DNA of 63,889 nucleotides, counting the filler, from Craspedostauros australis (lineage: Eukaryota): NCBI GenBank assembly GCA_030167865.1. It is 9 parts of 9 records of this genome, joined end to end, with 100 filler letters (N's around TTAATTAATTAA, not from the genome) between each part and the next. Parts side by side here need not be neighbours in the genome. Positions count along the whole stretch, not along the records: positions 49,789 to 56,643 come from JALAGF010004256.1; 8 more parts are not named here. One strand, written 5' to 3'. The translations under genes and the position numbers were made by a program. This document shows, one piece after another, positions 3,700-61,114 of the stretch. How positions within the stretch are numbered: position 1 is the first letter of the stretch; each line of letters begins with the position of its first letter. Under the pieces are notes generated by a model. That model was not told the origin of the DNA and made no database searches. It saw only the letters and a program-made list of their open reading frames with translations.

Positions 3700-3749
3700 T
3701 TGTTGTTGTTGTTGTTGTTGTTGTTGCTGCTGCTGCTGCTACTACTACT
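3700..3749. repeat. Compound trinucleotide microsatellite (TTG)n(CTG)n(CTA)n; duplicate at 10392-10441
   Basis: Read directly; explains the poly-C/V/T/N ORFs here. Confidence 0.95.
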
Positions 3750-10750: not shown

Positions 10751-10850
10751 NNNNNNNNNNNNNNNNNNNNNNNNNNNNNNNNNNNNNNNNNNNNTTAATT
10801 AATTAANNNNNNNNNNNNNNNNNNNNNNNNNNNNNNNNNNNNNNNNNNNN
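10751..10850. other. Artificial contig-join spacer 44N-TTAATTAATTAA-44N (also 28407-28506, 40503-40602, 45197-45296, 49689-49788, 56644-56743, 59029-59128, 60756-60855)
   Basis: Identical 100-nt structure with a six-frame stop linker at every occurrence. Confidence 0.98.
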
Positions 10851-18614: not shown

Positions 18615-19250
18615 CGATGTCCCTTGGAGAAGGGGAGGACTCCGCTTGGAGACTAGTCAGTGTGGTGCTTGAGTCTCTGCCTCTCGACAAGATGCTGCAG
18701 CGATACCTGGGGATCCCTGGCTGCTACAACTATAATATTATATTATATTATATAATACGAGTATGATGGATTCGTGGCCGGTTGATGGACCAAGGGAGGT
18801 GATGGTGAATGTGTCGAAACGCAAATGGGGCTGAGGATGCTTCCACATCGTGAACGCCAGGACCCTTGTGACCAACCGTGGTCGTGTCAAAAGACCCCTC
18901 GACTCCGCAAAAGTGCAGACCAAGCTCACTCCGTAATCTTCCCAAATCTCGAAAACGCTTCCAAAATCGTGGTTAGGTATTTTGGAATCTCGACATGCCG
19001 ATTAACCCGTCTACTATATCAATATTGAATATACAAAAGAGCTAATATTTTTGCGCAACGTTCATCGGAAGTTCAATGCTCAATCTCTACCCCCAAAGTC
19101 ACACTTCATCGTTTCATGACTTCATCACTTCATCATCATCTCTCGCATCATCCTTATCCTCGTCATTTCCTGATTCATCGAGTTACGTCGAGTTGCATCA
19201 AGTTGAGTTGATCGATCGACACTCCAAACAAGACACGATCTTGGATCGAG

Positions 19251-23700: not shown

Positions 23701-24451
23701 GCAGTTGATTCTGTTGCTGCTGCTGTTGCTGCGGTTGCAGTCTCTGAAGTTGCTGCATTTGCTGTTGCTGCGGATGTTGCGGCGGCGGGTGCTGCCTGGA
23801 GGGAGCTGGATGCCGTGGGGCAATAGGAGAGAGGGCCATTGGGTTCCCTGCCCTATCCAAACCATGTTGCTGCTGCTGCTGATGCTGCTGCTGCTGGTAG
23901 TGCGGAGGTTGGCGTTGATGCTGCGGTTGATAGCGCTGATTTCCGTGGCTTTGCATTTGTGGATGTTGGTGTTGACGATTCTGTTGTTGGGGATGACGCT
24001 GCTGCTGCTGATGCTGGCCTTGCATATGCATGTGCATGGTGTTCATGTTGTTGAGATTGGCTGGATTCATGTTCATCGGATGCATGTTTCCGCCGTTCAT
24101 GTTGATGTTGGCATTCATGTTCATATTAGCATTCATGTTTGTGTCCACGCCCACGTTCATGCGCATCTGCAGGGGATTGAGACCAGACCCCATGGAAGGG
24201 CTGAGATTGGAGGGTTGTGTGGGACCGCGGTTGTTCATGCCCCCCACTTGGCCTCCCACTTGGCCTCCACCAGGATTTGTCGCTGGAAGCGGATCAATGG
24301 TCTCAGGAAAGCGATTCCCGAAGGCAGCGCCAGCGTCGAGATCTTCGGCCATCGGCTCCAGCAACTGCATGGGGTTTTCCGGAAGGTCTTCAATGTGGGG
24401 CATGTTGTCCACAACATCATCGAATGACTCTTCTTCCGTGTCAGGTTGCAT
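20756..24451 (-). CDS. Large Q/M/N-rich nuclear protein with divergent DUF6824-like domain (1231 aa)
   Basis: Uninterrupted ORF with a long poly-Q N-terminus; central PTKVDVI...HAGNIYY...GGRFLK...RLSKVIHAIR; several basic NLS; acidic C-tail. Confidence 0.8.
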   Translation of the reverse strand: MQPDTEEESFDDVVDNMPHIEDLPENPMQLLEPMAEDLDAGAAFGNRFPETIDPLPATNPGGGQVGGQVGGMNNRGPTQPSNLSPSMGSGLNPLQMRMNVGVDTNMNANMNMNANINMNGGNMHPMNMNPANLNNMNTMHMHMQGQHQQQQRHPQQQNRQHQHPQMQSHGNQRYQPQHQRQPPHYQQQQHQQQQQHGLDRAGNPMALSPIAPRHPAPSRQHPPPQHPQQQQMQQLQRLQPQQQQQQQNQLRPQLQPQPQPQQQEKKNPQEQSQPQPKPHQQKKQQPRPRPQPPSQQQPKAKKRKDQQQLQQQEHEQQLKKKPRQQQQQKPKSQHKTQKQQRKANRQASDISPSMSRSMAKPRVSAALASKPAKSTKSGFPDLETINEDREMNAKKKKKANPQDVNNKEAGTNAGPPADADADVGLERSTAPDAELQGNKPAVPAPIPWGPKKTARSSRKSAPTPEELIPFVPTKVDVISTKLRTWNIKHAGNIYYTKIIQLAMQCLQSERPDEVRLLARCVVHEICTVLGGRFLKLKDGEKDSTMCVVMTTKTRLSKVIHAIRTAKFGRTHTGAPNFKGAKKKKPADAMAAQQTNAQPGTLASNQDESKGTGQQQQSQQSQKNDDDGRQAKTEIDFAKSESDFLAAVEIARAEHEAGDHTLLTPELFAKSTIKPKKSPGAKSRISPKGASGSSKKKKKTSKASKEDKPKEPEKDLSSFRQVFTFKINPNFNNRKSTIRYIMKIDSLARFATHVANGSNSSSTNPNAAIATASSRNRALCRNSKNSDIAKTTTGETSLTPSLSTLPTSATRGDFTDEPSLHYALECMLLICNTTETHSDPKHAYYVLDEPLPGYTEERRKHKPSDSEDSKTTNQSATTMTAPKIESKEFFQIRRLLQHRYAATTRSRISPIEFTRRLLRLWNNVAILEQIDLTAPNADVFAPAPSTKRTATKKRTMAAAAGTTTPGGPKKSDTKKKRKLGTPNMKPHFGGLDSTSNASTPVVADGVTARTNSNDGNLSQGNVNDGHEHEHPMTTSPSSTIAPQPTVQIDADVDEEMGAADGDESRLDATRPSNTTTAEIVEIRHDKEAMVNEAADVSTKPGAASKSSPNAGFKRPRITRTEMDLDDKPDAGLDTGDDSETDDDDDDDISEDDDYEEEDDVEDEELILEPPDESVIKMSRTGRRSVQKSRRSKSANKPARFKRVAVKTANKKLVLDQPPRTHDLIDSDDDESF

Positions 24452-25177
24452 CCTTGTCTATTGTGCTCGTACGTGTGGATCTAGGTGCACTAGTTTGGGA
24501 AGCGCTCGTCCTCTGTGACAAAGCACACGCTCTGACAGGATTACGAGTACTGTGGCGGCAAGCTCTCGGGATGGTGCTTGCATCCAAAGCAAGAGGACTC
24601 GTGTTGGCGCTCACGCTGGCTGTCCTGCAGGTTGCAAGTCTCCAAAGAGGCAGTAGATCAGGGCACCAGGTCCGAGAAGATGAAGAAGGCGATCAAAAGC
24701 GTTGATCTTGGGCGGAATGAGAATGGAGGGCGCCTCCGACAGAGTGAGCGAAAAGATACTGGTTTGGCCGCGACGGTTGGTGTTGTTTTTGTTGGTTGGA
24801 GCGGTTGTCTCCAACACGATGGCGGCGTTCAGTTTCGGGTCAAGATCATTTCGGGGGTGCTTTAGTTCATTTCGGGGTGGGAACCGTGCATTCTGGCCAA
24901 TGATGTCCCCCTAATATTAAGGAGTCGCGGTAAATTAAAATAATATAGGAACAAAAGGGAGAAAAGGAAGGAATGTGACGTGCACAATGGTGCACCAGAG
25001 CAACGAGTACAGTTCCAACCATCATCATAGAGAGCAGATCATGCAAGCACAAGCAACAAGCACCCTCACAACATTGCACCTTCAGTGACAGAGACAGCAG
25101 CAGACGAAACGAGACGACGAAGACAGGCACTTGCGGCATCGCCGGAGAGCAGTGCGCCTCTTCAAGATCGCAAAGGC

Positions 25178-27877
25178 ATGAATGCGTTTCGCCAACAAGC
25201 GACGAAGGGGATCTCCCAGCGGCAGCGGGCGGTCCTTGATGCGACATTGCAGGCCTCGAGAGCAGCAAGGCCGGTGCAGAAGAGGCTGGGCCGTTCGCAG
25301 CCAACTCGAAGCCATATGTTTTCCACATCTCGGTGCTTCAGCACAATGGCATCTGCCATCAAGAGTACTCGCGTGCAAGTCTGCACGAATGATCAATCAG
25401 ATACCCAGACGCAGAGAGCCATGAGCGCTGCCACTCAGCCGAATGCAGCTGGTGATGCGGACTCCATGCATCCTGATGTCATCCACTTTGATCATCTCAG
25501 AAAGGCCACCGCTGCACTTCTGCAATCGGTTCCGCGACTCTCTCAGCAACAGCATGGATTGAGGCATGCACGTGGGCGATCATCTGCTGGAAGCATCGCC
25601 GCCGGCTTTGCTCAAGCAACAGACTTCGGTTCTGGCGAGAAAGATCACGACCACGACCATCTCATTAGGTGGTGGCAGGAGGCTGTACACCTTCTGAAAG
25701 GTTGGAGTCGGTATGAGGCACCATCTCCATCCTTCAATCCATCACAATCAAACAAATCCACAGATGCCCCCAACCACCCTCCCGACATTGACATCATCTG
25801 CTGCTTTCAGATCATGAACCAAATGCATCAGATCATCACGCAGGTCTGTCCAGCTCCTCAGGATGGAATGGTCGACCCGTACGTACTCGATCACTTCTTC
25901 ACGCATCCCATCCACCGAGTGGACAGCCATCTGCTCAATAACATCGTTTGGAAGTGGAACAAGGTGTGGTCGCAGCGACAGCCGCGATCGTCTCGTCAAC
26001 ACCAACAACGAATGCGAGATCAACGTCGACATCCAGCACAACGGCAGCGTGATTCGATTGGCGCATCAAAGAAACCAAATGATAGCTCTCTGGATCTCTG
26101 GACACCGTCCAAGTTGGTGGAACAGCTTGACAAGTACCACCGGTGCTCCTTGATCGAGCCCAATGTCAGAACGTACAACGTCATCGTCGACACCACAACG
26201 CTGTTTCACCCGGAAGATGTCGACGAGGGCATACCCTACGCGGAATCCATGGTCCACCGCATGCTGGAGGTCAGCCGGAATACCAATGAGTCCATGCCGA
26301 TGCTCATTGATGCAATCACCATCGGCACCATCATGAAGGCATGGCTCAAGGCGCGTTCGCAAGAGACGCCGGAGAAGGTCGAGTACTGGTTCAAAACTCT
26401 GCACTCGCTCTGGGAGGAGGACTACCAACATCAGCAGCACCAGCAGGATCATGCCGTGCAACAGCTCCTGCGATCCAGCCGCTTCGTGAGCGACTCAAAT
26501 GTGCAGAACCAGATATCCACCCTGCTGCAACCCAACCGCGTCCACTACTCCATCGCCATGCAGGCCTGGGCCAACGCGGGTTATCCCAACAAGGCGCAAG
26601 CCCTCATGCAGGAGATGATGAGCGCCTTCCATCTCTACCGCCGCCGCGAGCAGTGGAATTTGGCGCGCGCAGTCTGTCCCGACACCGTCCTCTTCAACTC
26701 CCTCCTCTCCGCATGGGCCAAGTCCAACCAGCACAAGAATCAGGCACCGCAACATGCCCAGAAGATCATTCAGCGCATGAATGAGATCCAGGCGATTCTG
26801 TCCGGCGATGGGATCCACCATGATGGCTTCGACAGCAATGATAGTGTCAATGATGATGATGATGATGATGATGATGCTACGAGCATGGCAGACGAGCTGT
26901 CGAGTGCAATGAAATTCCCTGAAGCAAAATGGAACGCACAGCTCGACGTCGTCAACTGCGAGCCAGATCAGTACACGTTGTCCAACATCTTGGTGTGCTG
27001 GACACGATCCGGGTTGCCGAACGCCGTCGACAAAGCAGAAGAGCTGCTGGAAGAGATGGAGCGTACATGGGCGAGTGGCGAATCTCCCGTGGGTCCCAAC
27101 ATCGTCGCCTACAACACCATCATGATGGGACATGCGAGGAATGGGAATGAGGAGAAGGCGCAGAAACTGTTCAAGAAGATCGTGCAGTTGGAAAAGCAGT
27201 ACCTCCTGTCCGACCAGAGACATTACGGTTTGGTATCCGCTGACAACATTCCCAGGCCTGACACCATGACCTACAACAGCCTCCTGCAGGCTTGGTCCAA
27301 CTCCAAACGAACGGAGGCGCCTGACCAGGCGATGCGCATCCTCGATCGAATGGTGGCTAATAACAGCGTGCGCCCCGATGCCTTCACATTCGCTGGCATC
27401 CTCAAGTGCTGGTACAAGGTCGGCGCGGGACGCCATAGCAAACACCACAGCGCCAACATGCACAGCCCGCTTACGGCCGCGCAAACGGGCCACGACGTGT
27501 TGCACAGCATGCAGTCCACGTACAACGTGCGTCCCAACACCATCTGCTACAATGCCGTCCTGCAGGCATGGTACCACGTCGCGAGAACCGATGGCGAGAT
27601 GGCCGTGCAACGCAGCGTCGCCCTGCTGCATGAGATGCTGCAGGAATCCGTGGTGCCGGACGAATACACGCTGGGTTGGCTGCTGGAGACCATCCGGTCT
27701 GATAAGAAGAGTAGCGCGATCACGAGATGGAATCGCGCGCAGCAGATCGTGCACGTCATGTCGAACGCCCATGTGTCTCCGAATAGGAAATCTCGAAAGC
27801 TACTGGAACGATTGGAAAGACATGCGAGGGCGCAAACTCTACTTGCGGGGAAAGGCATGGAATCGAAGGGAAACTGA
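25178..27877 (+). CDS. Pentatricopeptide repeat (PPR) protein, probably mitochondrial
   Basis: Repeats PNVRTYNVIV, PNRVHYSIAMQAWA, PDTVLFNSLLSAWA, PNIVAYNTIMMGHA, PDTMTYNSLLQAWS, PDAFTFAGILKCW, PNTICYNAVLQAW. First in-frame ATG at 25178 gives an Arg/Ser-rich presequence. Confidence 0.92.
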   Translation: MNAFRQQATKGISQRQRAVLDATLQASRAARPVQKRLGRSQPTRSHMFSTSRCFSTMASAIKSTRVQVCTNDQSDTQTQRAMSAATQPNAAGDADSMHPDVIHFDHLRKATAALLQSVPRLSQQQHGLRHARGRSSAGSIAAGFAQATDFGSGEKDHDHDHLIRWWQEAVHLLKGWSRYEAPSPSFNPSQSNKSTDAPNHPPDIDIICCFQIMNQMHQIITQVCPAPQDGMVDPYVLDHFFTHPIHRVDSHLLNNIVWKWNKVWSQRQPRSSRQHQQRMRDQRRHPAQRQRDSIGASKKPNDSSLDLWTPSKLVEQLDKYHRCSLIEPNVRTYNVIVDTTTLFHPEDVDEGIPYAESMVHRMLEVSRNTNESMPMLIDAITIGTIMKAWLKARSQETPEKVEYWFKTLHSLWEEDYQHQQHQQDHAVQQLLRSSRFVSDSNVQNQISTLLQPNRVHYSIAMQAWANAGYPNKAQALMQEMMSAFHLYRRREQWNLARAVCPDTVLFNSLLSAWAKSNQHKNQAPQHAQKIIQRMNEIQAILSGDGIHHDGFDSNDSVNDDDDDDDDATSMADELSSAMKFPEAKWNAQLDVVNCEPDQYTLSNILVCWTRSGLPNAVDKAEELLEEMERTWASGESPVGPNIVAYNTIMMGHARNGNEEKAQKLFKKIVQLEKQYLLSDQRHYGLVSADNIPRPDTMTYNSLLQAWSNSKRTEAPDQAMRILDRMVANNSVRPDAFTFAGILKCWYKVGAGRHSKHHSANMHSPLTAAQTGHDVLHSMQSTYNVRPNTICYNAVLQAWYHVARTDGEMAVQRSVALLHEMLQESVVPDEYTLGWLLETIRSDKKSSAITRWNRAQQIVHVMSNAHVSPNRKSRKLLERLERHARAQTLLAGKGMESKGN

Positions 27878-28534
27878 TTGATTATGAGCACAAGGCATGA
27901 GCCATTTACCCCTGACGTGGTCTCTACTGTGCTGCGTACGATTCAGCCGCTGATGCCCTGTCTAACGCCCAATTAACCGAAATAACGCTCGCGTCTCCTT
28001 GGTCCCCTCGATATGCGGTGGCTGTGGTTCCGTCAGATCGTCTCATTCTCTCGCTGTCATTGTCGCTCTTTCTCGTACGGTATGTACCTGCTGCATGCCC
28101 TCACATTAGGACACCACAGGGCGCTCATCCCATCCACTGAAGAGTTACTCCTCAGCAGACCATCCGGTGGGTACTGTCGCGCAGCTTCGATGCATTAGAA
28201 GAGAATTCGCTGAGCTTGCTCTCTCCTTCGTGGTCCCAGCTGAGGCTTGGTCAGCATGTCAGCCAGATTGGTTTCCGATGGTTCATACTGAATGGTTGCC
28301 ACTCCAGCAGCCACATTCTCTCGAACGAAGTGATATGCAATTGCGTTGGCCTTCTTCCTGAGTTGTGATTCGGGTGCAGATGTGTTGTAGACGACGCTCT
28401 GATTGTNNNNNNNNNNNNNNNNNNNNNNNNNNNNNNNNNNNNNNNNNNNNTTAATTAATTAANNNNNNNNNNNNNNNNNNNNNNNNNNNNNNNNNNNNNN
28501 NNNNNNAGACACAGACGCAGGAGCTTCATCCGAG

Positions 28535-40502: not shown

Positions 40503-40602
40503 NNNNNNNNNNNNNNNNNNNNNNNNNNNNNNNNNNNNNNNNNNNNTTAATTAATTAANNNNNNNNNNNNNNNNNNNNNNNNNNNNNNNNNNNNNNNNNN
40601 NN

Positions 40603-41818
40603 AAGTCTTCATGATCGCTCACGATTCCAGTGTCCAGCACGCAAACCGTCACGCCTTCTCCCTTGGTCTTGTACTGCTCCCACACCAACGGGGCGTTGAC
40701 CATGTCGATTCCGTACGGTCTCCTTTGGCTTCCGACTTGGAGGTTGCGACCGCCAGCATGATTGTCCGCATCGGCACCCTCCACAACCACGGAATCATGG
40801 ATGTACAGCGGCTCGCGGACCAAATCCTCGTAGTAGTCGTACCCGTTGAGTACGGGCATGTCCGACAAGCTCAAGGACAACGCCACGGCATCGATGGTAT
40901 CAAGGTCGTGGACGATGCTGATGCTGTTGTTCGTGTCGACGCCAGCGTCGGCAGTCAGGGCCTCGATATCCTTGATGCATTGCTCATGAGAGACGCCCGA
41001 TGGGCACATGACGACGACGCGGACAAGGTCTTCATCGACGACCACAGCATCATCGCCAGTCGCGCCGGCGCCGACATCATGCACCGGGTCCTCAGTTTCA
41101 TCCTCGTTGCCAAGGACGTGGAAGGAGACGTCCGTGTCGGTGCCACCGTTGGATGCGGCCAATCCGCGAAGCTTCTTCGCGCCACCGGAGGCACCATCGG
41201 CGCCCCTGTTGGTCGTTCCACGGCCGTCTTCAGCACGAAGAGCGCGGTTGCTGCTGCTCTCGATGGCATCGCCAGCATGCTTGTGGGCGAAAGCTGGCGG
41301 AGTCGAGATGAGCGTCGACAAGACGAAGAGGTTGAAGATGGGGCGGGAAAGCTTGAACATGATGTTGAAGGTAGGTTGATATGGTTTGGTGGGATGGGAT
41401 GGTTTTCTTGATCGGTGAAGTTCCAAATTGTGAGCACTTCATGTTTGTCATTTCGGATCATCCATGCGATTCGCGCCGAACGCCATAATAGCACGATGTT
41501 ACATTGTTGCAGCCGTGTAAAGTGAATAGTGGTTGCATACGAGTAGTACTTCAAGAAGAAGTCACAGTGGCGACACTTGCAACTCTCACTCTCCATTGTC
41601 TGTTGTCTATTGTCCATTGGAACTGTCTCGTCTACAATTCTTCCTGTCGGACTTCCACACTTCTGCACTTCCGTATCTTTGGCTTGCGATTCTGCGCATG
41701 CTCATTTTCTGCTATTCGTTGACGTGGAATGTTGTGTTCCAGCATACCGCAGCATACGGAGCAGAGGAATGTCTGCTATGGCTGTTCCGACATGCGTACG
41801 AAGACGAAGATGGAATAG
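40603..41818 (-). repeat. Inverted copy of 45297-46512 (subtilisin promoter + most of exon 1); probable unmerged contig overlap
   Basis: Mirror-identical ORF set; coordinates sum to 87115; both copies begin exactly at a contig edge. Confidence 0.93.
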
Positions 41819-45196: not shown

Positions 45197-45754
45197 NNNN
45201 NNNNNNNNNNNNNNNNNNNNNNNNNNNNNNNNNNNNNNNNTTAATTAATTAANNNNNNNNNNNNNNNNNNNNNNNNNNNNNNNNNNNNNNNNNNNNCTAT
45301 TCCATCTTCGTCTTCGTACGCATGTCGGAACAGCCATAGCAGACATTCCTCTGCTCCGTATGCTGCGGTATGCTGGAACACAACATTCCACGTCAACGAA
45401 TAGCAGAAAATGAGCATGCGCAGAATCGCAAGCCAAAGATACGGAAGTGCAGAAGTGTGGAAGTCCGACAGGAAGAATTGTAGACGAGACAGTTCCAATG
45501 GACAATAGACAACAGACAATGGAGAGTGAGAGTTGCAAGTGTCGCCACTGTGACTTCTTCTTGAAGTACTACTCGTATGCAACCACTATTCACTTTACAC
45601 GGCTGCAACAATGTAACATCGTGCTATTATGGCGTTCGGCGCGAATCGCATGGATGATCCGAAATGACAAACATGAAGTGCTCACAATTTGGAACTTCAC
45701 CGATCAAGAAAACCATCCCATCCCACCAAACCATATCAACCTACCTTCAACATC

Positions 45755-48083
45755 ATGTTCAAGCTTTCCCGCCCCATCTTCAACCTCTTCGTCTTGTCGA
45801 CGCTCATCTCGACTCCGCCAGCTTTCGCCCACAAGCATGCTGGCGATGCCATCGAGAGCAGCAGCAACCGCGCTCTTCGTGCTGAAGACGGCCGTGGAAC
45901 GACCAACAGGGGCGCCGATGGTGCCTCCGGTGGCGCGAAGAAGCTTCGCGGATTGGCCGCATCCAACGGTGGCACCGACACGGACGTCTCCTTCCACGTC
46001 CTTGGCAACGAGGATGAAACTGAGGACCCGGTGCATGATGTCGGCGCCGGCGCGACTGGCGATGATGCTGTGGTCGTCGATGAAGACCTTGTCCGCGTCG
46101 TCGTCATGTGCCCATCGGGCGTCTCTCATGAGCAATGCATCAAGGATATCGAGGCCCTGACTGCCGACGCTGGCGTCGACACGAACAACAGCATCAGCAT
46201 CGTCCACGACCTTGATACCATCGATGCCGTGGCGTTGTCCTTGAGCTTGTCGGACATGCCCGTACTCAACGGGTACGACTACTACGAGGATTTGGTCCGC
46301 GAGCCGCTGTACATCCATGATTCCGTGGTTGTGGAGGGTGCCGATGCGGACAATCATGCTGGCGGTCGCAACCTCCAAGTCGGAAGCCAAAGGAGACCGT
46401 ACGGAATCGACATGGTCAACGCCCCGTTGGTGTGGGAGCAGTACAAGACCAAGGGAGAAGGCGTGACGGTTTGCGTGCTGGACACTGGAATCGTGAGCGA
46501 TCATGAAGACTTTGACATCGAACGCTTGACTGGATACAACGGCAGAGAAGCTGTGACACCGTGGGACGCCGATGGCAACGGGCACGGAACGGTACGTGCA
46601 TTTGAGGTTGAATCGGTCGATGTGACAATGCAACATCTCTTCGACATGGTATTGAGACATGGCCAGGACATGACTTCGTCATTCAACATTGGAGCCGCTG
46701 CTCATTCCGCAACTCTCATCATCTTTATGTACCGTACTCTCTGCAATCCATCCTATCGCTACTGCTNNNNNNNNNNNNNNNNNNNNNNCTGCTGCTGCTA
46801 CTGCTGTTACGGTACCAAACCTTTCATACCTTTCATACCTTTCAATCGCTCCATCGACATTCCTCCGAACCACAGCACGTCTCTGGAACGATCGGAGCCT
46901 CGGACAACACCGTGGGAGTCGTCGGCGTGGCACCTGGAGCCAATGTCTTCACCGTCCGAGTTTTCAACGACCGTGGAGTCTTCAGCTCGGACCTGATGAA
47001 GGCCGCGGCGGAGTGCCAAAACGCTGGTGCGGACATCATCAGCATGAGTCTCGGCGGAGGTGGTTCCAACAGTCGAGAACGTCAATTCTTCGAGAAGCTG
47101 TACAGCGAAGGCGTTCTGTCTGTGGCGGCTGCCGGAAACTCTGGATCGCAAGGCAACTCGGTCAACTATCCAGCGGCGTACGACATCGTCGTCAGCGTGG
47201 CAGCCGTGGACTCTTCCAAGCGACTGGCCAGCTTCTCAACTCGCAACAGCCGCGTCGATATCGCTGCACCAGGAGTCAACGTCCGCAGCACATGGAATGA
47301 TGGACGTTATGCCTCGATCAGCGGAACGAGCATGGTAAGTGCGGTACATGCTGCGAGTGATGATTGAAGATGACGAGACGAGACGAGACGAGACGACAAC
47401 GACAACGACAATGATGATACTTGAACGCTCGTCTTTCGGCGTGATCTCACTCTCTTGCAAGCATTCAATCGCTGCTCTTTTGGTTCTACTAAATCGTCTC
47501 ATGAACACAGGCATGCCCACACGTGAGTGGTGTGGCCGCATTGCTCAAGAGCTACAACAAGGATTTGACCACCCAGGAGCTCTTTGAAGCCATGACGTCC
47601 ACAGCGGAAGACCGTGGAGCCGCTGGCAAGGACAGTAGCTACGGAGAAGGCATCGTGGATGCGTTGGGCGCCATGAAAGTGGTAGCGGACAGCACCGACA
47701 ACGGCAACGGTGGAGGTGATGGCGGCGGTGACGAAACCAGCGGAGACGAGGATAACGGCGGTGGCGATGTCGCCTGCAAGGAGATCCGCGTGGACATCCA
47801 ATTGGATCGCTTCCCAGGTGACATCACCCATTCTGTGAGAAACCGTGCCACCGACGCAGTGCTTTGGCTTGAGGATAACTACAGCCAATTCCAACGTGAC
47901 ACGCAAACCGTGTGCGTCGATCCCACCTTGTGCTGGCGTTACGAGATGGTGGACAGCTACGGCGATGGTTTGGAGGGCAACAGAGAGCTCGTGTTGACCT
48001 ACGATGGAACCGTAGTGTACCGTGGCGGAAACTTCGGCACCGGAGGCGTCCGTGACTTTGGAGAAGGTTGTGGCAGCAACTAG
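45755..48083 (+). CDS. Secreted subtilisin-like serine protease (S8), three exons 45755-46591, 46876-47334, 47511-48083
   Basis: Signal peptide; catalytic triad VLDTG, GNGHGT|HVSGTIGA and ISGTSM|ACPHVSG reconstituted across two GT-AG introns; AAAGNSG oxyanion motif; C-terminal DSYGDG domain. Confidence 0.95.
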
Positions 48084-49688: not shown

Positions 49689-49788
49689 NNNNNNNNNNNN
49701 NNNNNNNNNNNNNNNNNNNNNNNNNNNNNNNNTTAATTAATTAANNNNNNNNNNNNNNNNNNNNNNNNNNNNNNNNNNNNNNNNNNNN

Positions 49789-50581
49789 TTGCTGGAGCGA
49801 AGGTGGAAGCAATGGTGGCTGAGACGGTCATGTTGAATGCTGTTGAATGCTGTTGAATGCTGTTGGTTTGGGTGATGGTGGTGGTTTGTGAGTTGATGGG
49901 ATGCTGAGCTTGTGCGTTAGTGAGGAGAGTACTAGTGTTTTGTTGTATAATGGTGTTGTATAATAGGTTGCGATGGAGTGCAGTGAGTGGATTGTATGTT
50001 TCTTTTGGTTGTTGGTTTGTTGATGGCTTGGAGTTTGAAATTGTGAGCACAGAATGTTGGACAGACAACTTCGAAGCACTGTCAGCACAGAATCAGCACT
50101 GTCGAAGGCGTCGGCGAAGATCGGTGTGACGGAGTGACCACGAAAGCAACCTCTGGAGTATCATAGAATAGTTCGTACTCGTATTAGTAGTCGTACCCGT
50201 ATTAGTAGTCATACCATTCGCCACTGTCGTCGAACCATGATGAAAGAGAGGAACGGTGAAAGAGTAGAACCGAGTGGAACCTGTTCTCATGACTTCTCAG
50301 ATCCAAGAGAGATTGGAAGCCGCGCGGCGACCATGTGTGCATGGCGCAAGAGTATCGTGAGAGCACATGTCAGAGCGCCGGAGCAAGGGACGACTGCTTG
50401 GATGGGAGGGAGAGGATGGAGCTTTGCGAGAGCGATTGGATCGACGAAGAAGTCGATCGCAGCAGAAGAATTCTCCGGATCACCCACTGCACCACTAATC
50501 ACCACGAGTACTGAAACGGGTGTGATGGCGTGCGTAAGCCCTTGTGAGCACGAAGTAGCACGGTGCGTACTCGTGTGTGTG
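49789..50581 (-). repeat. Inverted copy of 56744-57536; probable unmerged contig overlap
   Basis: Mirror-identical ORFs; coordinates sum to 107325; both copies begin at contig edges. Confidence 0.93.
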
Positions 50582-52356
50582 TGTGGTACGGGTCTGAATG
50601 TCCCTTGGCTGTCTCTGGTCTCAGTGGTGGAGGGCAACGGCTGGAAGTCATTCCACCCAAACGCAGCGCAGGCACACCCTTCGCAAATGAGGATTTTGGT
50701 CGTGGCGGAAGGTCTTCGCCGTTGTTCTTGAGAACGAGGTTTGGTCTTGAGTTTGGATTCGGGCTTAGTCAACACGAATCGGTGGAGGATGCCTCGTGAA
50801 TCTGCCAGCTTCAGGATAGCCATGTGACGAAGTTCAAGAGAGGTGTACTGGATTGAAGATGTGTTACTGTAACGATGAGTAGATGAGTGCTTTGTAGCTA
50901 ATCCTTGTCTGTTTATTATGAGTTAGCTTGTAGTGTTAGTAGGATGAAGAAACAATGTCACACAGCTTGATAGGACCCTGCACTGATGTACTTGGTTCAG
51001 TGCTTGAGGGTAGGCAATTATTGCAGTCCCTTGCTCTCCTCACACATAGACACACTGCAGTGTAGGTCATGACACTCAATGGTGGCGGTCATGAAGCAAT
51101 GGCTGTGGCTGGAGTTCACTCTCGGATTCCCTTGCTTGAGTTGAAGCAGATTGGATATACATGTCAGGACTACAGCAGTAGTGCAGTAGTCATTAGCATG
51201 GAGGGAATCGAGGTATGTTGTAGTGACAGGATCTGAGGAGCATAGTTCCCAAGGTGAGATGTGAGTCAGGTCGGTCATGTTTGAGTCATGATGGATTCGT
51301 GAATGGAGGAGAGAAAAGGGTGAAACGATTTGGTGGTCGATCAAGTCGGAAGATTTCGCGCCAAAACAAGAATTTCTCCTATCAGAGGTGGATACCGTGT
51401 TTGGTGATAGTATGTCCCTTATTGAATCTCAACTCGTACAATTCAATCACAGACAGACGCAAACAACACACAAACAAACACACAAACAAACAGACAGACA
51501 GACAGACATGATGTCAACGACACGCTGGCGCAAACGAGACAAGTCGAAAGCAAACATCCATCTGACTGCCTTCCCTGATTTCCCCTTGTTTCCTCTCGTC
51601 GTCCCACTGTATGATCACTCTCCCTGCCTCCCTGCCTCTCAACAGTGTAGAGTATGATCAGCCCGTGTGCCTTTGCAACTTCACGAATACGAGCCTTGAG
51701 TATGATGTCGTGCGATTATTATGAGGACGATACGAAGTCAAGTTCTCTCTATCTCTAGAGAGGGCGTGTGTGTTGTGTGTGTGTCGTGTGTGATGTGGGT
51801 GTGTCGTGTGTGCCGTGTGGTGATGTGTGTGCCACAGCAACAGCGAATATCAGATAATCCCAAAAGCAAACTGTACAGTATGACGCGGGTGTGTTGTGGT
51901 TGTTGCGAATTAGTGGTTACTGTAGATGTTGTTGCTGGTGCCTGTCAGTGGCGGCAATCACCAAACCCAGGAGTAGGTTTCAATGTCTCTTCATCAGTGG
52001 TGGTTGTGAGCCAAAGATTGCAAGCCAAAGAGATACAGGCAGTGCAAGTGCTGCAAGCGCGAGTGCAAGGGCACGAAAGCAGCGATAGAGCATGATCAAG
52101 GGGCCTTGATACACACAAAACAAAGGCAAAAGCAGCGATGATGGTGCTGTTTCGCACAGTGGTGTGGCATGGGATCGTGACAAGTGCCAGTTGTTGATGA
52201 CGTGTTCGCCAAAAATGATTTCGCAAGCATGTCATGCTTGGCTGGCGTGTAACGAAATCTGCATGTTGCATAATTGGTGGGTGCCAACTGACAAATGTTT
52301 GGAGTTGGCATTCCCATGTATGGATATAGTAATATTGTGGCATGCATTTGAACGGT

Positions 52357-52451
52357 TGTTGGAAATCCGGGGTATAGATATGAACCACAGAAATCAAAAC
52401 ACATATATATACACACACACAATGATCGGTAAAAAACAGGGGATTGCCTGG

Positions 52452-52452
<1 letters not shown>
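52357..52452. mobile_element. LTR-like terminus TGTTGGAAATCCGGGGT, cut off by the (TG)n tract and CRE-like element
   Basis: Same 17-mer at 62859 and 63362. Confidence 0.5.

Positions 52453-52484
<32 letters not shown>
52453..52484. repeat. (TG)16 microsatellite at the 3' end of the CRE-like element
   Basis: Read directly. Confidence 0.97.
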
Positions 52485-52485
<1 letters not shown>

Positions 52486-55400
52486 AACTAGGTGGGTGTT
52501 AATCACTACTGTGTAGGGCGGAACCGCGACAAGCCGAGTTTGAATCACAGAAACCAAGCACCAAGAGAGTCAGTCCCGCAGAACAGGCTCCGCCTGGAGT
52601 GACCGAGATTGTCACGTATTGATGTAGTGAAACCTGAGCAAGCGAAGATAGGGAGCCAAACTATCGATAGAGCGAGAGGCCGTCGCCATTCTCCCATGGC
52701 AACGCCCTCGTGCGCCCGAATGGCTGCCGATCAGCACGGAGACACCGGCTCGTGGCCCGCACCAATGCGATAGACAGTCGAGAGCGAACATACGAGCACA
52801 CCTGCCCGTACTTCCGCTTCCACTTCTTGGAGAGCGTGGAGGCCAGCCGCTTGGTAGCGGCAGCGGCCTCCTGCCCCACGAGTCCATCAACAGAGAACAC
52901 CAGGGGGGTGAAGTGCTTGCGCTGCTGGACGCAGCGGTCCAGATACTTGGCCTTCTTCAGCCCCTCATGCGATCGAAGGACGCTCTTGGGGGATCTGGAG
53001 CGGTACGTCCGAGCATCTGTGTCGCAGACGCGGATGTCGAAGACCGCAGTGGACCCCCGCTTCCAGAACCCATGAACTGCAACATCCCCTCGCAGCTCAG
53101 GTTCAACCTCCACAGCCAACCCAGCAGCACTGCCACCAGCACCTCGGCTGTTCCGACCAGTATGGATCAATGGTTCGTCGGAGACAGAGGAAGGGTTGAT
53201 GGCCTGGCTGCAAAGCTGGCCCCACTCGCCACATACGTCATTGTGGCGAAGCAGAACGAGCCCTCCCTTCTTGCAGGAGAGGGCATGCTCCACAGAGAAC
53301 CGCTCGCCGCAGCCATTGCATCGCTCAGGTAGCGACGCTGGGTGCAAGCCGAAGCGAATGCGGAGGCTGTCGCGAAACTCATCAGCCGACAAATCGGTCC
53401 CATTGAGCTCGCTGGGCATGGCCGTGAGCCACGCCCCAGTGGACTTGGAGCGCTCGATGCGCCGAGCAGCAAGGTTGCTGGAGTTGGCGACGATGCCCGC
53501 GAGGACACCATCGTCAGCCTCTTCCTTGGCCTTGAGCCGTTTGCGCCTTGCACTCCTGGCAGCACTGACAAACCGCTCCACATTGAGACTGGACCCCTGA
53601 ACCAGGGACTGGGTGAGGCAATCCGTGGCATGGACGGACGTGGAGTGGTTCTCAGCCGCCGCAGCAGTGGGATCGGGGATCCCAAGCCCAGCCTGCTTGA
53701 CTGGCAGGCCGAGGAGCCGGCGCAATCCGGCTACCTCGGACACATCCGCATCCAGGAGGGCTGGGAGGAAGGTGCCAGCAATGGAAGCCTCAACAGGGCG
53801 GAAGCAATCTCCAGAGTTCTCCACAATTCGCTGCAAGAACGACCACTCGGCCTGCAGCGACTTGGAGAGGCCAGCAAACGCAGTCTGCGGGAACCGCTTT
53901 GCCACCTTCGCGAGCTCATGGATGCCGTGGACCCACTGCTCGATCTGAGGCGCAATCCAGGCCTCCCTGGAAGCGTCAGACCCGACAAATCCGCCCACGT
54001 AGCGGTGGCCATCGCGGTGGTTGAAGCCAAACTCGGCCAGTGCGGCGCGACAGGCAGCATCCTCATCCGCTTTGCAGCAGACAAACACGCTCTTCGCAGG
54101 CTCGGGGAAGTACCCACGAGCTGGACCCTGCTGCGCCAGCAGACGAGTAGCGGCGGCAATGCCATCCACAGGGCCCACCATGGCAGCATCGTCGGCATAC
54201 CATGGCTGAAGCACACTGGGGACGGCCTCGCGCAGCGACGCCACAAGTGGCAGGAGAGCAACTCCATAGAGGACCATCGAAAGAGGATCCCCTTGGGTCA
54301 CACCCTCGCGTGACTGCAGCACAGTGCTGCCACCCTGTCCTCGCAGGACGAGCATGGCGGAGTGGCGGTAGCAATTGAATGCAAACCGAGCCCCACCTGC
54401 CCAGCGATGCCGCACAGTCCAGAGCATGGCCTTGCGGCTCAGCTCGTTGAACCCATTGCGAGCATCGACGAGCAGCATTCCCCGTGGGATAGAGGCTGCC
54501 TCGTCGCCGTCACCACCACCGCCAGCGTCCATCGCACGACCAGCTCCGCCAGAAGAGGCAGGTGGGTTGCCAGATTCAGTGCTGTCGCGGCCATTGGCGG
54601 GCGCGGCGTCGTTGCTTGGGTCGTCGTCGCCGTCGTGGAACGCAAGTTGCACCGCATGAACAGCACCCTCGATGCCTGCTGGCAAGCCAGCACACAGGTT
54701 CAGGTTGCCACAGGCGGAAGTGGCACGACGCCCAATGGCAGCAAGGACGCATTTCGCCATGAGACGACGAAACACTTCGCCAATGCCGAGAGGACGCACA
54801 CCTGGACGCTTGTCCAGCGCAATGAGGCGGCACGCCATCATGGCGCGGTAGGCAGCCCACGGAGGATGGGAGTTGGAGAGCCAGTTGGTCCAAGCAGCAA
54901 TCTCCTCACGGAGATGCTTGGACTCGCTGCCAAACCGCAGGAGCCAGTTGCCCAGATCAACGGCATCAACACCGCCCGGACCAGCCGCCCCCGAGAGTTT
55001 GGAAGCAACCGATCCAACCACCTCCTCAGTGATCTTGACAGGGACAGGGGTGGGAGCAGGACCACCGTACGGCTCGAACGCTCCGGACCCGTCGCCATCA
55101 ACGCCAGGATCACGCATGGCGGGATGTTTGAGCCGCAGTGCCTCCTCCACTGGCAGACCAGACTTGGCGTCGACGTCAGTTGGAAGGAGGAGATCGCCGC
55201 CTTCACGAGATGTTAGGGTGCGAACCGCAGCACGCAGACGACCGGAAAGAACCTTCGAGTTGAAGGCGCGGGCACGCGACTCGTCGTCGCGTGTGCCACC
55301 AGATCGAGCAGCATGCTGACGCAGCTCGGATTCGGTGTCCTCGACCAGCGCGGCAAACTTTCCGGCCTCCCACAAATCCATGCGAGAGGACAGCCGCTGC

Positions 55401-56602
55401 CGGACGTCACCGGCGCCACGAACACCAGGGGTGGTCTGGAGGACCACTGCCGCAAGCAACAGCGGTCGCTCCGAGTTCCACAGCCGGTCGCGAACCCCCT
55501 TGAGCTCCAGAGAGAGGAGGCGAAGGAATCTGCGGCCGACACGGCCACGCGGGACAGAGTAGCGTCGCGGGGAGAACGCGACGACGCGAGCCCAGCGCTG
55601 CTGCCACACACTATCTCCGTCAACACCACCATGGAGGTGGGAGCCGTCGTTGTCGTGGGCGTGGTCGCCGTACACCTGATCCAGCATGCCATCCGCGGGA
55701 GTTGCGGCGTAGCCAGGGAGATCCGCGCCCCTATCAGGAGTCACAACGTTGCCAGGAGCGGGCACAGGCCCGCCGCGACGAGGAGGGACTTCAGAAGCGG
55801 CGGCAGCCTCCGGCGGAGCAGGATCAGAACCCTCAGGTGCAGGAGGGGCCTCCACACCATCGGCGGGAACAGGAGCAGTCGGTGGCGCTGCAGCTGTTGC
55901 AGGGACGGGCGGAGGAGGGACGTGAGCTGCTGGGGGTGCAGCAGCGTCAGTGGTTGGGTTGGCGGCACCACAATCGCCCGTGTTGCTGGCATTGTTGGCA
56001 CCGTCGCTGCGGCTGCCATTGTTGACGACAACACCACTGCTGTCAGCACTGCCGCGGTATGGATTCACCACAGCAGGATGGGCAGGAAGGAAGGCATCCA
56101 TGGGCCCATCAGCGGTAGCAGCGACAGCATCGCGCTTGTTGGTGCAATGTCTCTTGCATGCGCAAGAGACACAGGTGCGGCCAGCAGCGCGACACTCGCA
56201 CTGATGTGAGCCCCTCGCAGGGCGAGAAGGGCACACAGCAAAGCGAGAGCAAGAGCAGCACGGTTGAAAAGTTGTGCGCTGTCGGCGGTGAGGGGGAGTG
56301 GCCTCAGAACCGGTGTGCGCAGAATTTTGGGTCGTGTGTGCCCTGCGGCGAGATTCCGTCGGCCCACGATGAGCGGTACTGCGACCGCGTGCGGGAGGGA
56401 CGGGGGAGGAATTCTCCGATGGATGAGTTTGTCCGACGCTTGACGCCCGACGCCGACCATGGCGACTCTCATCAGCCATGATTGTCGGTGCAAATCAGCC
56501 CCTGTGGCAGGACGGCAGCGGCGTAAAGACGGAACACAAGTCCCTCGATGAGGTGCGGTGAGAGAGACCTGTTCAGCAGCCCTCGCACGGCGCCCGGAGG
56601 TG

Positions 56603-56604
<2 letters not shown>
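52485..56604 (-). mobile_element. CRE-clade-like RLE non-LTR retrotransposon, apparently full-length (~4.12 kb; ~125-nt 5'UTR, ~176-nt 3'UTR), flanked by (CA)n
   Basis: Single intact RT-RLE ORF; GC/CpG-rich block bounded sharply on both sides by TG tracts. Confidence 0.88.
52661..56479 (-). CDS. Retrotransposon ORF: CXC-like Zn cluster + reverse transcriptase + CCHC knuckle + restriction-like endonuclease (1272 aa)
   Basis: RT motifs GAAGPGG, LIALDK.PGVRPLGIGE..RRL..K, LVDARNGFN, GVTQGDPLS, WYADD, RYVGGFVG, GLGIPDP; C-terminal CNGC...HALSC, RHNDV, RGDV...FDIRV, KKAKY, FTPLVFSVDG. Confidence 0.93.
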   Translation of the reverse strand: MADESRHGRRRASSVGQTHPSENSSPVPPARGRSTAHRGPTESRRRAHTTQNSAHTGSEATPPHRRQRTTFQPCCSCSRFAVCPSRPARGSHQCECRAAGRTCVSCACKRHCTNKRDAVAATADGPMDAFLPAHPAVVNPYRGSADSSGVVVNNGSRSDGANNASNTGDCGAANPTTDAAAPPAAHVPPPPVPATAAAPPTAPVPADGVEAPPAPEGSDPAPPEAAAASEVPPRRGGPVPAPGNVVTPDRGADLPGYAATPADGMLDQVYGDHAHDNDGSHLHGGVDGDSVWQQRWARVVAFSPRRYSVPRGRVGRRFLRLLSLELKGVRDRLWNSERPLLLAAVVLQTTPGVRGAGDVRQRLSSRMDLWEAGKFAALVEDTESELRQHAARSGGTRDDESRARAFNSKVLSGRLRAAVRTLTSREGGDLLLPTDVDAKSGLPVEEALRLKHPAMRDPGVDGDGSGAFEPYGGPAPTPVPVKITEEVVGSVASKLSGAAGPGGVDAVDLGNWLLRFGSESKHLREEIAAWTNWLSNSHPPWAAYRAMMACRLIALDKRPGVRPLGIGEVFRRLMAKCVLAAIGRRATSACGNLNLCAGLPAGIEGAVHAVQLAFHDGDDDPSNDAAPANGRDSTESGNPPASSGGAGRAMDAGGGGDGDEAASIPRGMLLVDARNGFNELSRKAMLWTVRHRWAGGARFAFNCYRHSAMLVLRGQGGSTVLQSREGVTQGDPLSMVLYGVALLPLVASLREAVPSVLQPWYADDAAMVGPVDGIAAATRLLAQQGPARGYFPEPAKSVFVCCKADEDAACRAALAEFGFNHRDGHRYVGGFVGSDASREAWIAPQIEQWVHGIHELAKVAKRFPQTAFAGLSKSLQAEWSFLQRIVENSGDCFRPVEASIAGTFLPALLDADVSEVAGLRRLLGLPVKQAGLGIPDPTAAAAENHSTSVHATDCLTQSLVQGSSLNVERFVSAARSARRKRLKAKEEADDGVLAGIVANSSNLAARRIERSKSTGAWLTAMPSELNGTDLSADEFRDSLRIRFGLHPASLPERCNGCGERFSVEHALSCKKGGLVLLRHNDVCGEWGQLCSQAINPSSVSDEPLIHTGRNSRGAGGSAAGLAVEVEPELRGDVAVHGFWKRGSTAVFDIRVCDTDARTYRSRSPKSVLRSHEGLKKAKYLDRCVQQRKHFTPLVFSVDGLVGQEAAAATKRLASTLSKKWKRKYGQVCSYVRSRLSIALVRATSRCLRADRQPFGRTRALPWENGDGLSLYR

Positions 56605-56643
<39 letters not shown>
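56605..56643. repeat. (GT)n microsatellite (at least 19 units, runs into gap) at the 5' end of the CRE-like element
   Basis: Read directly. Confidence 0.97.
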
Positions 56644-57493
56644 NNNNNNNNNNNNNNNNNNNNNNNNNNNNNNNNNNNNNNNNNNNNTTAATTAATTAAN
56701 NNNNNNNNNNNNNNNNNNNNNNNNNNNNNNNNNNNNNNNNNNNCACACACACGAGTACGCACCGTGCTACTTCGTGCTCACAAGGGCTTACGCACGCCAT
56801 CACACCCGTTTCAGTACTCGTGGTGATTAGTGGTGCAGTGGGTGATCCGGAGAATTCTTCTGCTGCGATCGACTTCTTCGTCGATCCAATCGCTCTCGCA
56901 AAGCTCCATCCTCTCCCTCCCATCCAAGCAGTCGTCCCTTGCTCCGGCGCTCTGACATGTGCTCTCACGATACTCTTGCGCCATGCACACATGGTCGCCG
57001 CGCGGCTTCCAATCTCTCTTGGATCTGAGAAGTCATGAGAACAGGTTCCACTCGGTTCTACTCTTTCACCGTTCCTCTCTTTCATCATGGTTCGACGACA
57101 GTGGCGAATGGTATGACTACTAATACGGGTACGACTACTAATACGAGTACGAACTATTCTATGATACTCCAGAGGTTGCTTTCGTGGTCACTCCGTCACA
57201 CCGATCTTCGCCGACGCCTTCGACAGTGCTGATTCTGTGCTGACAGTGCTTCGAAGTTGTCTGTCCAACATTCTGTGCTCACAATTTCAAACTCCAAGCC
57301 ATCAACAAACCAACAACCAAAAGAAACATACAATCCACTCACTGCACTCCATCGCAACCTATTATACAACACCATTATACAACAAAACACTAGTACTCTC
57401 CTCACTAACGCACAAGCTCAGCATCCCATCAACTCACAAACCACCACCATCACCCAAACCAACAGCATTCAACAGCATTCAACAGCATTCAAC

Positions 57494-58267
57494 ATGACCG
57501 TCTCAGCCACCATTGCTTCCACCTTCGCTCCAGCAATCACCTCTGGTGCCAACGTCTCGGCGGCCATCAGCAGCGTTCTGATGATCGGCGCCACCGGACG
57601 AATGGGAGCCCAACTCATCAACTCCATGTCCAAGCACGAAGCCACCAACGGTGCCTCCGTCGAGATCTCAGCATTCTGCCGCACCCCAGGCAAGCTCGAT
57701 GCCGCCACCAGGGCACGATGCGCACATGTCTACAAGGGTGACGCTCGCCGTGCCTCCGACCTCGAGTACGCCATCCATGATTCCAATGCCGATCTCGTCC
57801 TCGTCGCCGTCGGTAACGGTGACGACGTCAGCAAGTCCGATATCCGCGAGGCCAACGCCAAAGCGCTCGTGCNNNNNNNNNNNNGCAATCCAGCATTCGA
57901 GCACGTCCGCGTCTTCGTGGTCTCCAGCAACGGCGCGGGACCCACCAAGATCAAGGCAGGCTTCGGCCTCGGTCTGATCCTGCAGTACTACCTGCGCCAC
58001 GTGATGAAGGATCACACCAATCAGGAGAACGTGTTCCTGAGCGGCATGAAGAACCGTGTCGGATTTGTGCGTCCCACAGCATTGACCGATGGCAAGCCGA
58101 CCGGACACATGAAGACCTTCGGCGACAAGGACAAGCCACCGTCCATCCAGACCGATCGTGCCGATTTGGCCGATTGGGTGACCGCCAACGTCGTGTTCGG
58201 AGCCGATTCCAACAAGGTGAATGCCTTTGGTTCCAACGCCTTCAACGTCACATGCGTCAAGAAGTGA
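57494..58267 (+). CDS. NAD(P)-binding Rossmann-fold protein (flavin/biliverdin reductase B-like atypical SDR)
   Basis: VLMIGATGRMG dinucleotide-binding motif, AFCRTPGKL, KGDA, VRPTALTDG, DRADLADW; a 12-N internal gap keeps the frame. Confidence 0.88.
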   Translation: MTVSATIASTFAPAITSGANVSAAISSVLMIGATGRMGAQLINSMSKHEATNGASVEISAFCRTPGKLDAATRARCAHVYKGDARRASDLEYAIHDSNADLVLVAVGNGDDVSKSDIREANAKALVXXXXXNPAFEHVRVFVVSSNGAGPTKIKAGFGLGLILQYYLRHVMKDHTNQENVFLSGMKNRVGFVRPTALTDGKPTGHMKTFGDKDKPPSIQTDRADLADWVTANVVFGADSNKVNAFGSNAFNVTCVKK

Positions 58268-59221
58268 GAACGCAGAATGAGACCTTGATTCGTGATGTGT
58301 CTCTGGTGTGAGAATTCGCCCCAGTTTGACAGGAAGCAACGTGAGCGGCAACTGCGACGACAGCATGAAACTCGCACGAGCCCTGTCGGATAGAGAGGTG
58401 GAACCACAGAACAACAACAAATCAACGACTTCCAGATCATATAGAATATATTCTAATACGTACCAGTACCATGCGTCGAAGATATCAGTTTGGTGGAAAC
58501 AGCCAGAGTACTCAGTTCCAAAACATACACAGTCCAGAAGAAGCCACTCCACTTGTGGCGAGAGCAGTCAATTACATCTACTCGTCCTACCAGTATTACC
58601 CTCATGCCATGGTGGTTGCAACAGGTGCAATGCTGCTGCACTCTTTCGCCGCATCGCGTGTCATTCTCTCTTTCTCCTTTGCGGCCTCCGATGGTCTTCA
58701 CTCCGGAGATTGATTTGTGTGTTGCGCTCCTTGTTGTTGATGCTCTCTTGGTTGTGCTTGTCGTGATGTTTGTGACTTCGTTTTGGATCATTTTTGCCGT
58801 TTCGTGACACCATGTCTTCGCCAGAAATATGACATCTCTTTATCACTATTAGGTGTTTGTGCTTTTTGCTTTTGCTTCTGGTGTCACGCCATGTGTTCTC
58901 TGGAGGAACAATTGGGCTGTCGACGTCACCATCATCTGGCCGCCAATAGGATGAAGCAGATGGCAAGGAAGCGAAAGAATCGGATCGAGAGGAAAGGAAG
59001 AGATGTCAGGGATGGTCCAATCAGATGCNNNNNNNNNNNNNNNNNNNNNNNNNNNNNNNNNNNNNNNNNNNNTTAATTAATTAANNNNNNNNNNNNNNNN
59101 NNNNNNNNNNNNNNNNNNNNNNNNNNNNGACTTCCCTGTGTCTCTCACTACCTATCCTACCACAGTTTGTCAGCACCATGGGCCATCAAACATACCACAC
59201 TGGGCATCCGGCTTGCGCCTG

Positions 59222-60674: not shown

Positions 60675-61114
60675 AGAGGCCTATCGCATTTCACATTGGG
60701 AGTCCCACGGTACAAAATAACCTGATAATGACATTTTTAGAGGGGCAACATGCGANNNNNNNNNNNNNNNNNNNNNNNNNNNNNNNNNNNNNNNNNNNNT
60801 TAATTAATTAANNNNNNNNNNNNNNNNNNNNNNNNNNNNNNNNNNNNNNNNNNNNTCAGGACATTTAATTTTGGCGTTTGACTGGCTGGAACACGTATCC
60901 ACGACACAAATTATGAGTGTCACAACAATTCATCGTGTTGTGGCTGGTGTCATTTGCTCCGTTCTTCCGTGTGTGCCTGTTCCGGGCATTGGTGGACCTC
61001 CACTTGCAACATGGTACTTGCTTGTTCTGGTTTTGTCTCCTGCTGCGTCAACACAATCATGTTATTGTTTCTACTGTCCAACAAGCTTGGTTACGTCTAT
61101 TTTACAGTCTTTTC

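Follow-up and report, generated by a model that had tools for sequence, protein, structure and literature searches.

A retrotransposon with a restriction-like endonuclease and CA repeats at both ends in the diatom Craspedostauros australis

Results and Discussion

In a 63.9-kb window (the whole stretch of DNA analyzed here) taken from the genome assembly GCA_030167865.1 of the diatom Craspedostauros australis, one contig (49789-56643) carries a mobile element bounded on both sides by CA dinucleotide repeats. Judged from its sequence and from a predicted protein model, it is an intact non-LTR retrotransposon (one that lacks long terminal repeats, LTRs) of the restriction-like endonuclease (RLE) group, with an R2-like protein architecture. 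We read it, with a probability of roughly 0.65, as a long interspersed nuclear element (LINE) with an RLE and a simple-repeat 3' tail, which would integrate at repeats that match this tail, be they part of the genome at large or left as tails by older copies. As such, the element adds to a known kind of repeat-seeking RLE elements, already described in fish and insects, and is not a new system.

An intact element between two CA arrays

The unique body of the element extends over 4121 bp of the minus strand (52485-56605), and the junction arrays adjoin it directly on both sides. Its parts, from the 3' end to the 5' end, are the following.

52453..52484, minus strand: 3' junction repeat, (CA)16 in the sense of the element, that is, (TG)16 on the plus strand; unique flank follows
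52485..52660, minus strand: 3' untranslated region (UTR) of 176 nt with the terminal bases CCTAGTTC and without poly-A
52661..56479, minus strand: single open reading frame (ORF) of 1272 amino acids (aa) plus stop, with homologues found
56480..56605, minus strand: 5' UTR of 126 nt, its start homologous to the 5' start of the relative L007, which itself comes after (CA)n
56606..56643, minus strand: 5' junction repeat, (CA)19 in the sense of the element and (TG)19 on the plus strand, cut by the contig end and a linker

A first-pass annotation of this DNA had described a 4.1-kb element with one unbroken 1272-aa ORF, bounded directly by (TG)16 and (GT)19+ and devoid of poly-A, and these points were confirmed: the ORF occupies the minus strand from 56479 to 52661, with its first ATG five codons past an in-frame stop, the arrays lie at 52453-52484 and 56606-56643, and no A-run was found at the 3' end of the element. 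Its further statement that the element is embedded in a microsatellite holds for the 3' side, which is seen fully, but not for the 5' side, where the contig ends within the (CA)19. Across the window, the only two GT/AC arrays of at least 12 units are the (TG)16 and (TG)19 at the element ends, and the only other one of at least six units is a (GT)6 at 50573; hence, the coincidence of the long arrays with both ends of the element is not a matter of chance. A self-BLAST retrieved nothing but the terminal CA arrays at the ends, and there were no long terminal repeats.

The same annotation had considered the element CpG-rich in comparison with CpG-poor neighbors and, on that basis, young. The first statement was wrong, given an observed/expected CpG ratio of 0.88 in the element versus 0.70 to 1.20 in 2-kb bins of the window, and the second falls with it, as the element is not CpG-enriched; only its G+C content is higher (0.62 to 0.66 versus ca. 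0.50 in the surroundings). The predicted fold of the 3' UTR showed no extra stability with respect to shuffled sequences (z of 0.82). An Rfam scan of 49789-59028 retrieved no RNA gene, with neither an rRNA nor a spliced-leader gene in the flanks. A match to mir-3149 on both strands of 52397-52479 (43.9 and 28.9 bits versus a gathering score of 100) was discarded as an artifact, probably meaningless, because an (AC)5 at ca. 52415 faces the inverted (TG)16 and can pair with it as a hairpin.

Domain architecture and fold of the encoded protein

Profile and fold matches support the earlier description of the ORF product as a reverse transcriptase (RT) combined with an RLE, encoded by an apparently intact ORF. 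The predicted order along the protein is an N-terminal cysteine module, the RT, a linker, a CCHC knuckle, and a PD-(D/E)XK nuclease, located as follows.

56120..56278, minus strand: N-terminal cysteine module, CCxCx5C...CxCx6Cx2CxCx3CxN, kept in close relatives
53990..54862, minus strand: reverse transcriptase core, approximately residues 540-830, with RPLGIGE, VDARNGFN, and YADD (761-764)
53273..53320, minus strand: CCHC zinc knuckle (C1054, C1057, H1065, C1069), invariant in 25/25 and 60/60 aligned relatives
52880..53248, minus strand: restriction-like PD-(D/E)XK endonuclease domain, approximately residues 1078-1200, from the alignment and a domain model

The RT aspartates, including the A-D-D of YADD at 762-764, are invariant in 25/25 aligned relatives, and so are R1078-H1079, E1102-P1103, D1132, D1148, and K1175 of the nuclease. 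Pfam RVT_1 matched the window protein with an E value of 0.055 and was present in 18 of the 25 aligned relatives, while a profile of these 25 sequences (A1) matched the RT of human L1 ORF2p and R2 proteins with E values from 9e-14 to 2e-6. The CCHC knuckle followed by the PD-(D/E)XK nuclease, both C-terminal to the RT, is the layout of the RLE group, and no family of apurinic/apyrimidinic endonucleases (APE) appeared in the Pfam scans of the window protein and its relatives. The features of a LINE are also present, namely, a LINE-type RT, the absence of LTRs, the (CA)16 tail, and 5'-truncated copies in three of the relatives (L007, L010, and L015).

Residues 300-1272 (973 aa) were modeled with AlphaFold on the basis of 60 relatives, with a mean predicted local distance difference test (pLDDT) score of 89.6. 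The best Foldseek matches of this model were the R2 proteins of Bombyx, zebra finch, and turtle (949 to 1069 alignment columns, E values from 9e-20 to 3e-16, TM scores of 0.45 to 0.53), with L1 ORF2p ranking after them. A second structure comparison (VIA) placed L1 ORF2p and R2 at comparable levels (Z of 25 to 17), the R2 alignments reaching both C-termini, and the fold matches to R2 and L1 ORF2p outranked those to group II intron RTs. The C-terminal 243 residues, folded alone (pLDDT of 91) and compared with 48,161 representative chains, matched R2Tg 1178-1390 (Z of 14.9, root mean square deviation [rmsd] of 3.8, 189 aligned) and R2Bm 898-1107 (Z of 13.8, rmsd of 3.3, 179 aligned). The next-best match, with a Z of 7.9, was the endonuclease-like region of Prp8, and cap-snatching endonucleases, Hjc resolvases, and restriction-fold proteins came after it.

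The N-terminal cysteine module matched no Pfam family at an E value of ≤10, and among the 25 relatives no CXC, TCR, or other zinc-finger family was detected except for one PHD finger (in P0177). A PDB profile search with the module returned a single row, a chance fibronectin (E value of 3.2), and the Atlas gave a weak lead to MSL2-CXC (0.83, with a lead threshold of 0.9).

Junctions of related elements

To the window element we compared the junctions of 11 loci from metagenome contigs and seven from eukaryote-like contigs binned in prokaryote metagenome-assembled genomes (MAGs) (closer alignment A2). The 5' terminus was visible in seven elements, the one in the window plus L001, L002, L006, L007, L011, and L015, with L005, L008, L009, L016, and L018 being uninformative, and in 7/7 the sequence directly upstream was of the kind that ends such an element.

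In L007, the protein of which is 49% identical to that of the window element, (CA)12 adjoins the 5' terminus. The 5' leaders of both elements align right after (CA)n, which places the junction at a homologous, full-length terminus despite the low protein identity. Farther upstream, L007 has two stacked short fragments of one 54-nt unit, each terminated by (CA)n, which we read as 5'-truncated 3' ends, and (CA)5+ at the contig start. In L011, (CTA)25+ at the contig start lies upstream of the 5' terminus, and in L006 (1-3161), a permuted contig, the order is 3' UTR-(AGTC)7.8-5' UTR. The distant relative L015 (5673-8912, 35% aa identity) belongs to an array that begins with (AAT)7 after unique DNA and continues with three stacked 3'-end fragments, a long copy preceded by (AAT)14, and (AAT)13, after which unique DNA resumes. 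After the first fragment come 12 other bases and then (ATA/AAT)n, whereas GTGTCC(AAT)n terminates both of the later fragments.

The contig that holds this eukaryote-type array (777,748 bases) is labeled as a Nitrosopumilaceae archaeon MAG, and the flanks of the array are AT-rich and tandem-repeat-rich (GC of 0.35 to 0.39); the contig probably belongs to a host and was misbinned, or is a chimera, and no copy besides the known one was found in the genome bin behind L015.

Two contigs of one family, L001 and L002, have another 3' end directly upstream of the 5' terminus. In L001 (1-4334), which is wrapped from head to tail, positions 1-123 repeat 4212-4334 identically and the 3' UTR is joined directly to the 5' UTR; L002 has upstream an 87-nt piece, 87% identical to its own 3' end, that we read as an older 3' fragment. 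The 60- to 87-nt direct repeat of L002 was also considered as a long target-site duplication and rejected, as the upstream copy runs into diverged 3'-UTR sequence; it had no Rfam match. The permuted or wrapped form of L006 and L001 is expected of head-to-tail arrays, and a circular form would give the same result.

In total, the junction repeat units across the relatives were (CA)n, (CTA)n, (AGTC)n, (AGTCGGTC)n, and (AAT)n. At the locus with the (AGTCGGTC)n tail (L010), this tail is directly followed by an 11-nt tandem repeat (TAAGCAATGCC) in 8.5 copies (7818-7910). A quick maximum likelihood tree of 34 rows, with support from the Shimodaira-Hasegawa-like approximate likelihood ratio test only and several long branches flagged, recovered L007 (CA) as sister to L011 (CTA) with a support of 100 and placed the window element (CA) together with L006, L002, and L010 in a different starred clade.

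Integration model and alternatives

The mechanism that we propose starts from an element RNA that would end in a (CA)n tail and not in poly-A. This copy may be active, and its nuclease would nick a (CA)n/(TG)n tract on the (TG)n side; the (TG)n 3' end released in this way could then anneal to the RNA's (CA)n tail and serve as primer for reverse transcription, that is, target-primed reverse transcription (TPRT). On a matching tract, be it a microsatellite of the genome or a tail left by an older copy, TPRT would leave the new copy with (CA)n on both sides, and the use of such older tails would give rise to the head-to-tail arrays and stacked 5'-truncated fragments found in the relatives.

Several observations weigh against this model. 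The window contains a single copy of the element, and its 5' side stops at a contig break. A microsatellite is entirely lacking in L001 and L002, the upstream sequence being a non-repeat 3'-end segment. L010, a recent 5'-truncated copy 99.1% identical to L006, differs from it in the tail unit, (AGTCGGTC)6.9, and lacks a clean repeat on the 5' side, so that either insertion is not strictly into repeats or deletions occur. Tandem Repeats Finder (TRF) detected no simple repeat in the 119 to 420 nt past the stop codon in L003, L004, L012, L013, L014, and L017, where the contigs may stop short of the actual 3' ends; L014 has three GTA units, at the contig end only. Lastly, the type of junction repeat is not distributed in accordance with the tree and is thus evolutionarily labile.

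An alternative holds that (CA)n is merely the 3' tail encoded by the element, that the 5' (CA)19 belongs as tail to another copy, full or truncated, lying upstream, and that genomic CA microsatellites are not recognized, the arrays coming from repeated insertion beside old copies for other reasons or from unequal recombination. Wherever the contig shows what lies past the upstream repeat, one finds the 3' end of another copy (L001, L002, L007, and L015; the permuted L006 is ambiguous). In addition, units of the (AGTCGGTC)n type are unlikely as common genomic microsatellites, L010 is tailed and yet has a non-repeat 5' junction, and GT/AC arrays are scarce apart from the element ends (one (GT)6 in ca. 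60 kb). However, the outermost left edges of the arrays are again repeats, (AAT)7 in L015 and (CA)5+ in L007, as if the first insertion had hit a pre-existing tract. Moreover, insertion exactly at old tails is already a form of sequence-directed integration, and Togen, an RLE relative, is described as (TG)n-specific (PMC4640811). We regard this alternative as possible but doubtful. As for the targeting of repeats claimed in the first-pass annotation, what stands is that the lineage is tied to simple repeats through the junctions of the relatives; the repeat also behaves as the element's own 3' tail. The associated idea of microsatellites as a multicopy safe harbor was not borne out, since the repeat found upstream frequently belongs, as tail, to an older full or truncated copy and the 5' junction of L010 is not a repeat. 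By comparison, the landing of an untargeted LINE in a pre-existing CA microsatellite by chance, with which the single copy in the window would agree, is highly improbable: the two element ends account for both long GT/AC arrays in 63.9 kb, the independent L007 also has (CA)n at its homologous 5' terminus, and the pattern recurs in relatives with other units.

A different question is what selects the site. The N-terminal Cys-rich, possibly CXC-like module might bind the (CA)n duplex and position the nuclease, with the RNA tail being irrelevant to the site; on everything else, this explanation overlaps with the tail-matching model that we prefer. The conserved module sits where R2-group proteins have DNA-binding fingers, and, cysteines aside, its residues have changed more quickly than those of the RT between sisters with different repeats, as in L007 versus L011 (51% in the module versus 57 to 70% in the RT) or in L002 and L006 (65 to 66% and 54% in alignment columns 1 to 300, where the module lies, versus 82% farther on). 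The MSL2-CXC lead points the same way, although it falls below the threshold, and the module has no sequence match in Pfam or PDB. Given that the N-terminal region diverges faster than the RT, the comparison does not separate readout by RNA from readout by protein. The different tail units of L006 and L010 would be hard to explain by a change in the protein, the two copies being 99.1% identical, and they lean toward the RNA or template side; selection of the site by the protein alone seems to us rather unlikely. At the other extreme, pairing between tail and DNA might set the target throughout this RLE LINE lineage, in such a way that changing a few bases of the tail retargets the element. This would account for sisters in (CA)n versus (CTA)n and for 99%-identical copies with (AGTC)n versus (AGTCGGTC)n, and we offer it as a speculative idea that will more probably fail than hold. 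If true, tail-set targeting would amount to a naturally RNA-programmable single-protein integration system.

Comparison with known target-specific elements

Among solved structures, that of R2, represented by Bombyx mori, Taeniopygia guttata, and Platysternon megacephalum, comes closest to the window protein over the RT, linker, CCHC, and RLE, at a sequence identity of 13 to 16%. R2 is likewise a single-ORF element and integrates by TPRT, but its target is a site in the 28S rDNA, whereas the flanks of the window element have no RNA gene or rRNA match in Rfam. The N-terminus of R2 carries CCHH and Myb motifs, unlike the N-terminal module of the window protein, which is a Cys cluster without a Pfam match. 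Among elements associated with simple repeats, Dong (R4 clade) is an RLE element found with (TAA)n, and the APE-type Mino uses (AC)n. With regard to Dong/R4, the distant relative L015 lies in an (AAT)n array, whereas the window element uses (CA)n. The CRE clade (SLACS, CRE1, and CZAR) comprises RLE LINEs that insert in spliced-leader RNA genes, none of which was detected by Rfam at the site of the window element. The only pointer to this clade, to which the first-pass annotation had likened the element by the label CRE-like, came from one Atlas look-alike cluster (rank 3, score of 0.97) with the automatic name "Retrotransposable element SLACS protein."

That an RLE LINE may live in TG/CA repeats is an idea already in print, as Kojima and Jurka (2015, PMC4640811) make clear for Togen and HERO. 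According to them, the majority of non-LTR retrotransposons that encode an RLE show target specificity for repetitive sequences, microsatellites included, with spliced leader exons also among the targets, some HERO families are microsatellite-specific, and the Togen families of fish are (TG)n-specific RLE elements. Togen, which is near NeSL/HERO, has the same dinucleotide repeat and enzyme class as the window element, the hosts being fish in one case and a diatom in the other; the likeness is drawn from the published description and not from sequence.

In literature searches for diatom RLE LINEs, we found no description of the family of the window element, which may already have been deposited in Repbase. 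LINEs receive little attention in the papers on diatom transposable elements that were searched, one study giving them <0.5% in Phaeodactylum, and the element adds a well-preserved, apparently coding-competent RLE LINE. Its close relatives with different junction repeats make up a natural series for asking which of the two, RNA tail or protein, chooses the TPRT target, a question that bears on current attempts to re-aim R2-type enzymes. As a safe-harbor tool, the element has less appeal than R2, given that CA repeats are scattered over a genome and do not form one locus.

Relatives in environmental data

Searches of environmental data retrieved 20,428 cluster representatives at an E value of ≤0.001 and 1070 at ≤1e-30. 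Among the matches listed, the closest relatives were environmental proteins with up to 59% identity, mostly from marine contigs, and many relatives were found on contigs of ca. 4.2 to 4.4 kb, the size of one element. Seven of the best 120 matches listed bore the name of an organism, in all cases the diatom Fragilaria crotonensis; as far as sequence matches tell, the named members of this lineage come from a diatom. The names of 10 distant cluster representatives were uninformative, and a scan of viral contigs gave 67 pattern matches and no relatives. Accessory modules appeared among distant relatives in 1/25 each, an OTU-like cysteine protease in P0232 (E value of 3.6e-12) and the PHD finger in P0177 (E value of 0.0014), and in P0237 (also 1/25) an RNase-H-like RVT_3 domain (E value of 1e-10) lies within a long insertion.

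Assembly context and neighboring genes

The window consists of nine contigs joined by N44-TTAATTAATTAA-N44 linkers, and the order across a linker is biologically meaningless.

10751-10850, 28407-28506, 40503-40602, 45197-45296, 49689-49788, 56644-56743, 59029-59128, 60756-60855: linkers

Thus, the CACACACA found past the linker at 56644-56743 is part of another contig and not a flank of the element. Contig ends were duplicated at 100% identity in three cases, two of them as reverse complements, 793 bp between 49789-50581 and 56744-57536 and 1216 bp between 40603-41818 and 45297-46512 of neighboring contigs, and the third as a direct repeat of 4058 bp with which the first contig both begins and ends (1-4058 and 6693-10750). 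These duplications look like unresolved overlaps of the assembly graph. The contig that starts at 56744 breaks inside the (GT)6 at 50573-50584, so the assembly has a branch point at this second GT repeat, 1.9 kb from the element.

Three ORFs in the window contain DUF6824 (1075-2433, 7767-9125, and 20759-24457 on the minus strand), the first two being identical copies within the 4058-bp repeat. Among the other neighbors, the ORF at 25031-27874 encodes a pentatricopeptide repeat (PPR) protein, the one at 16473-18656 an O-fucosyltransferase, and the one at 19212-20447 a glutamine cyclotransferase.

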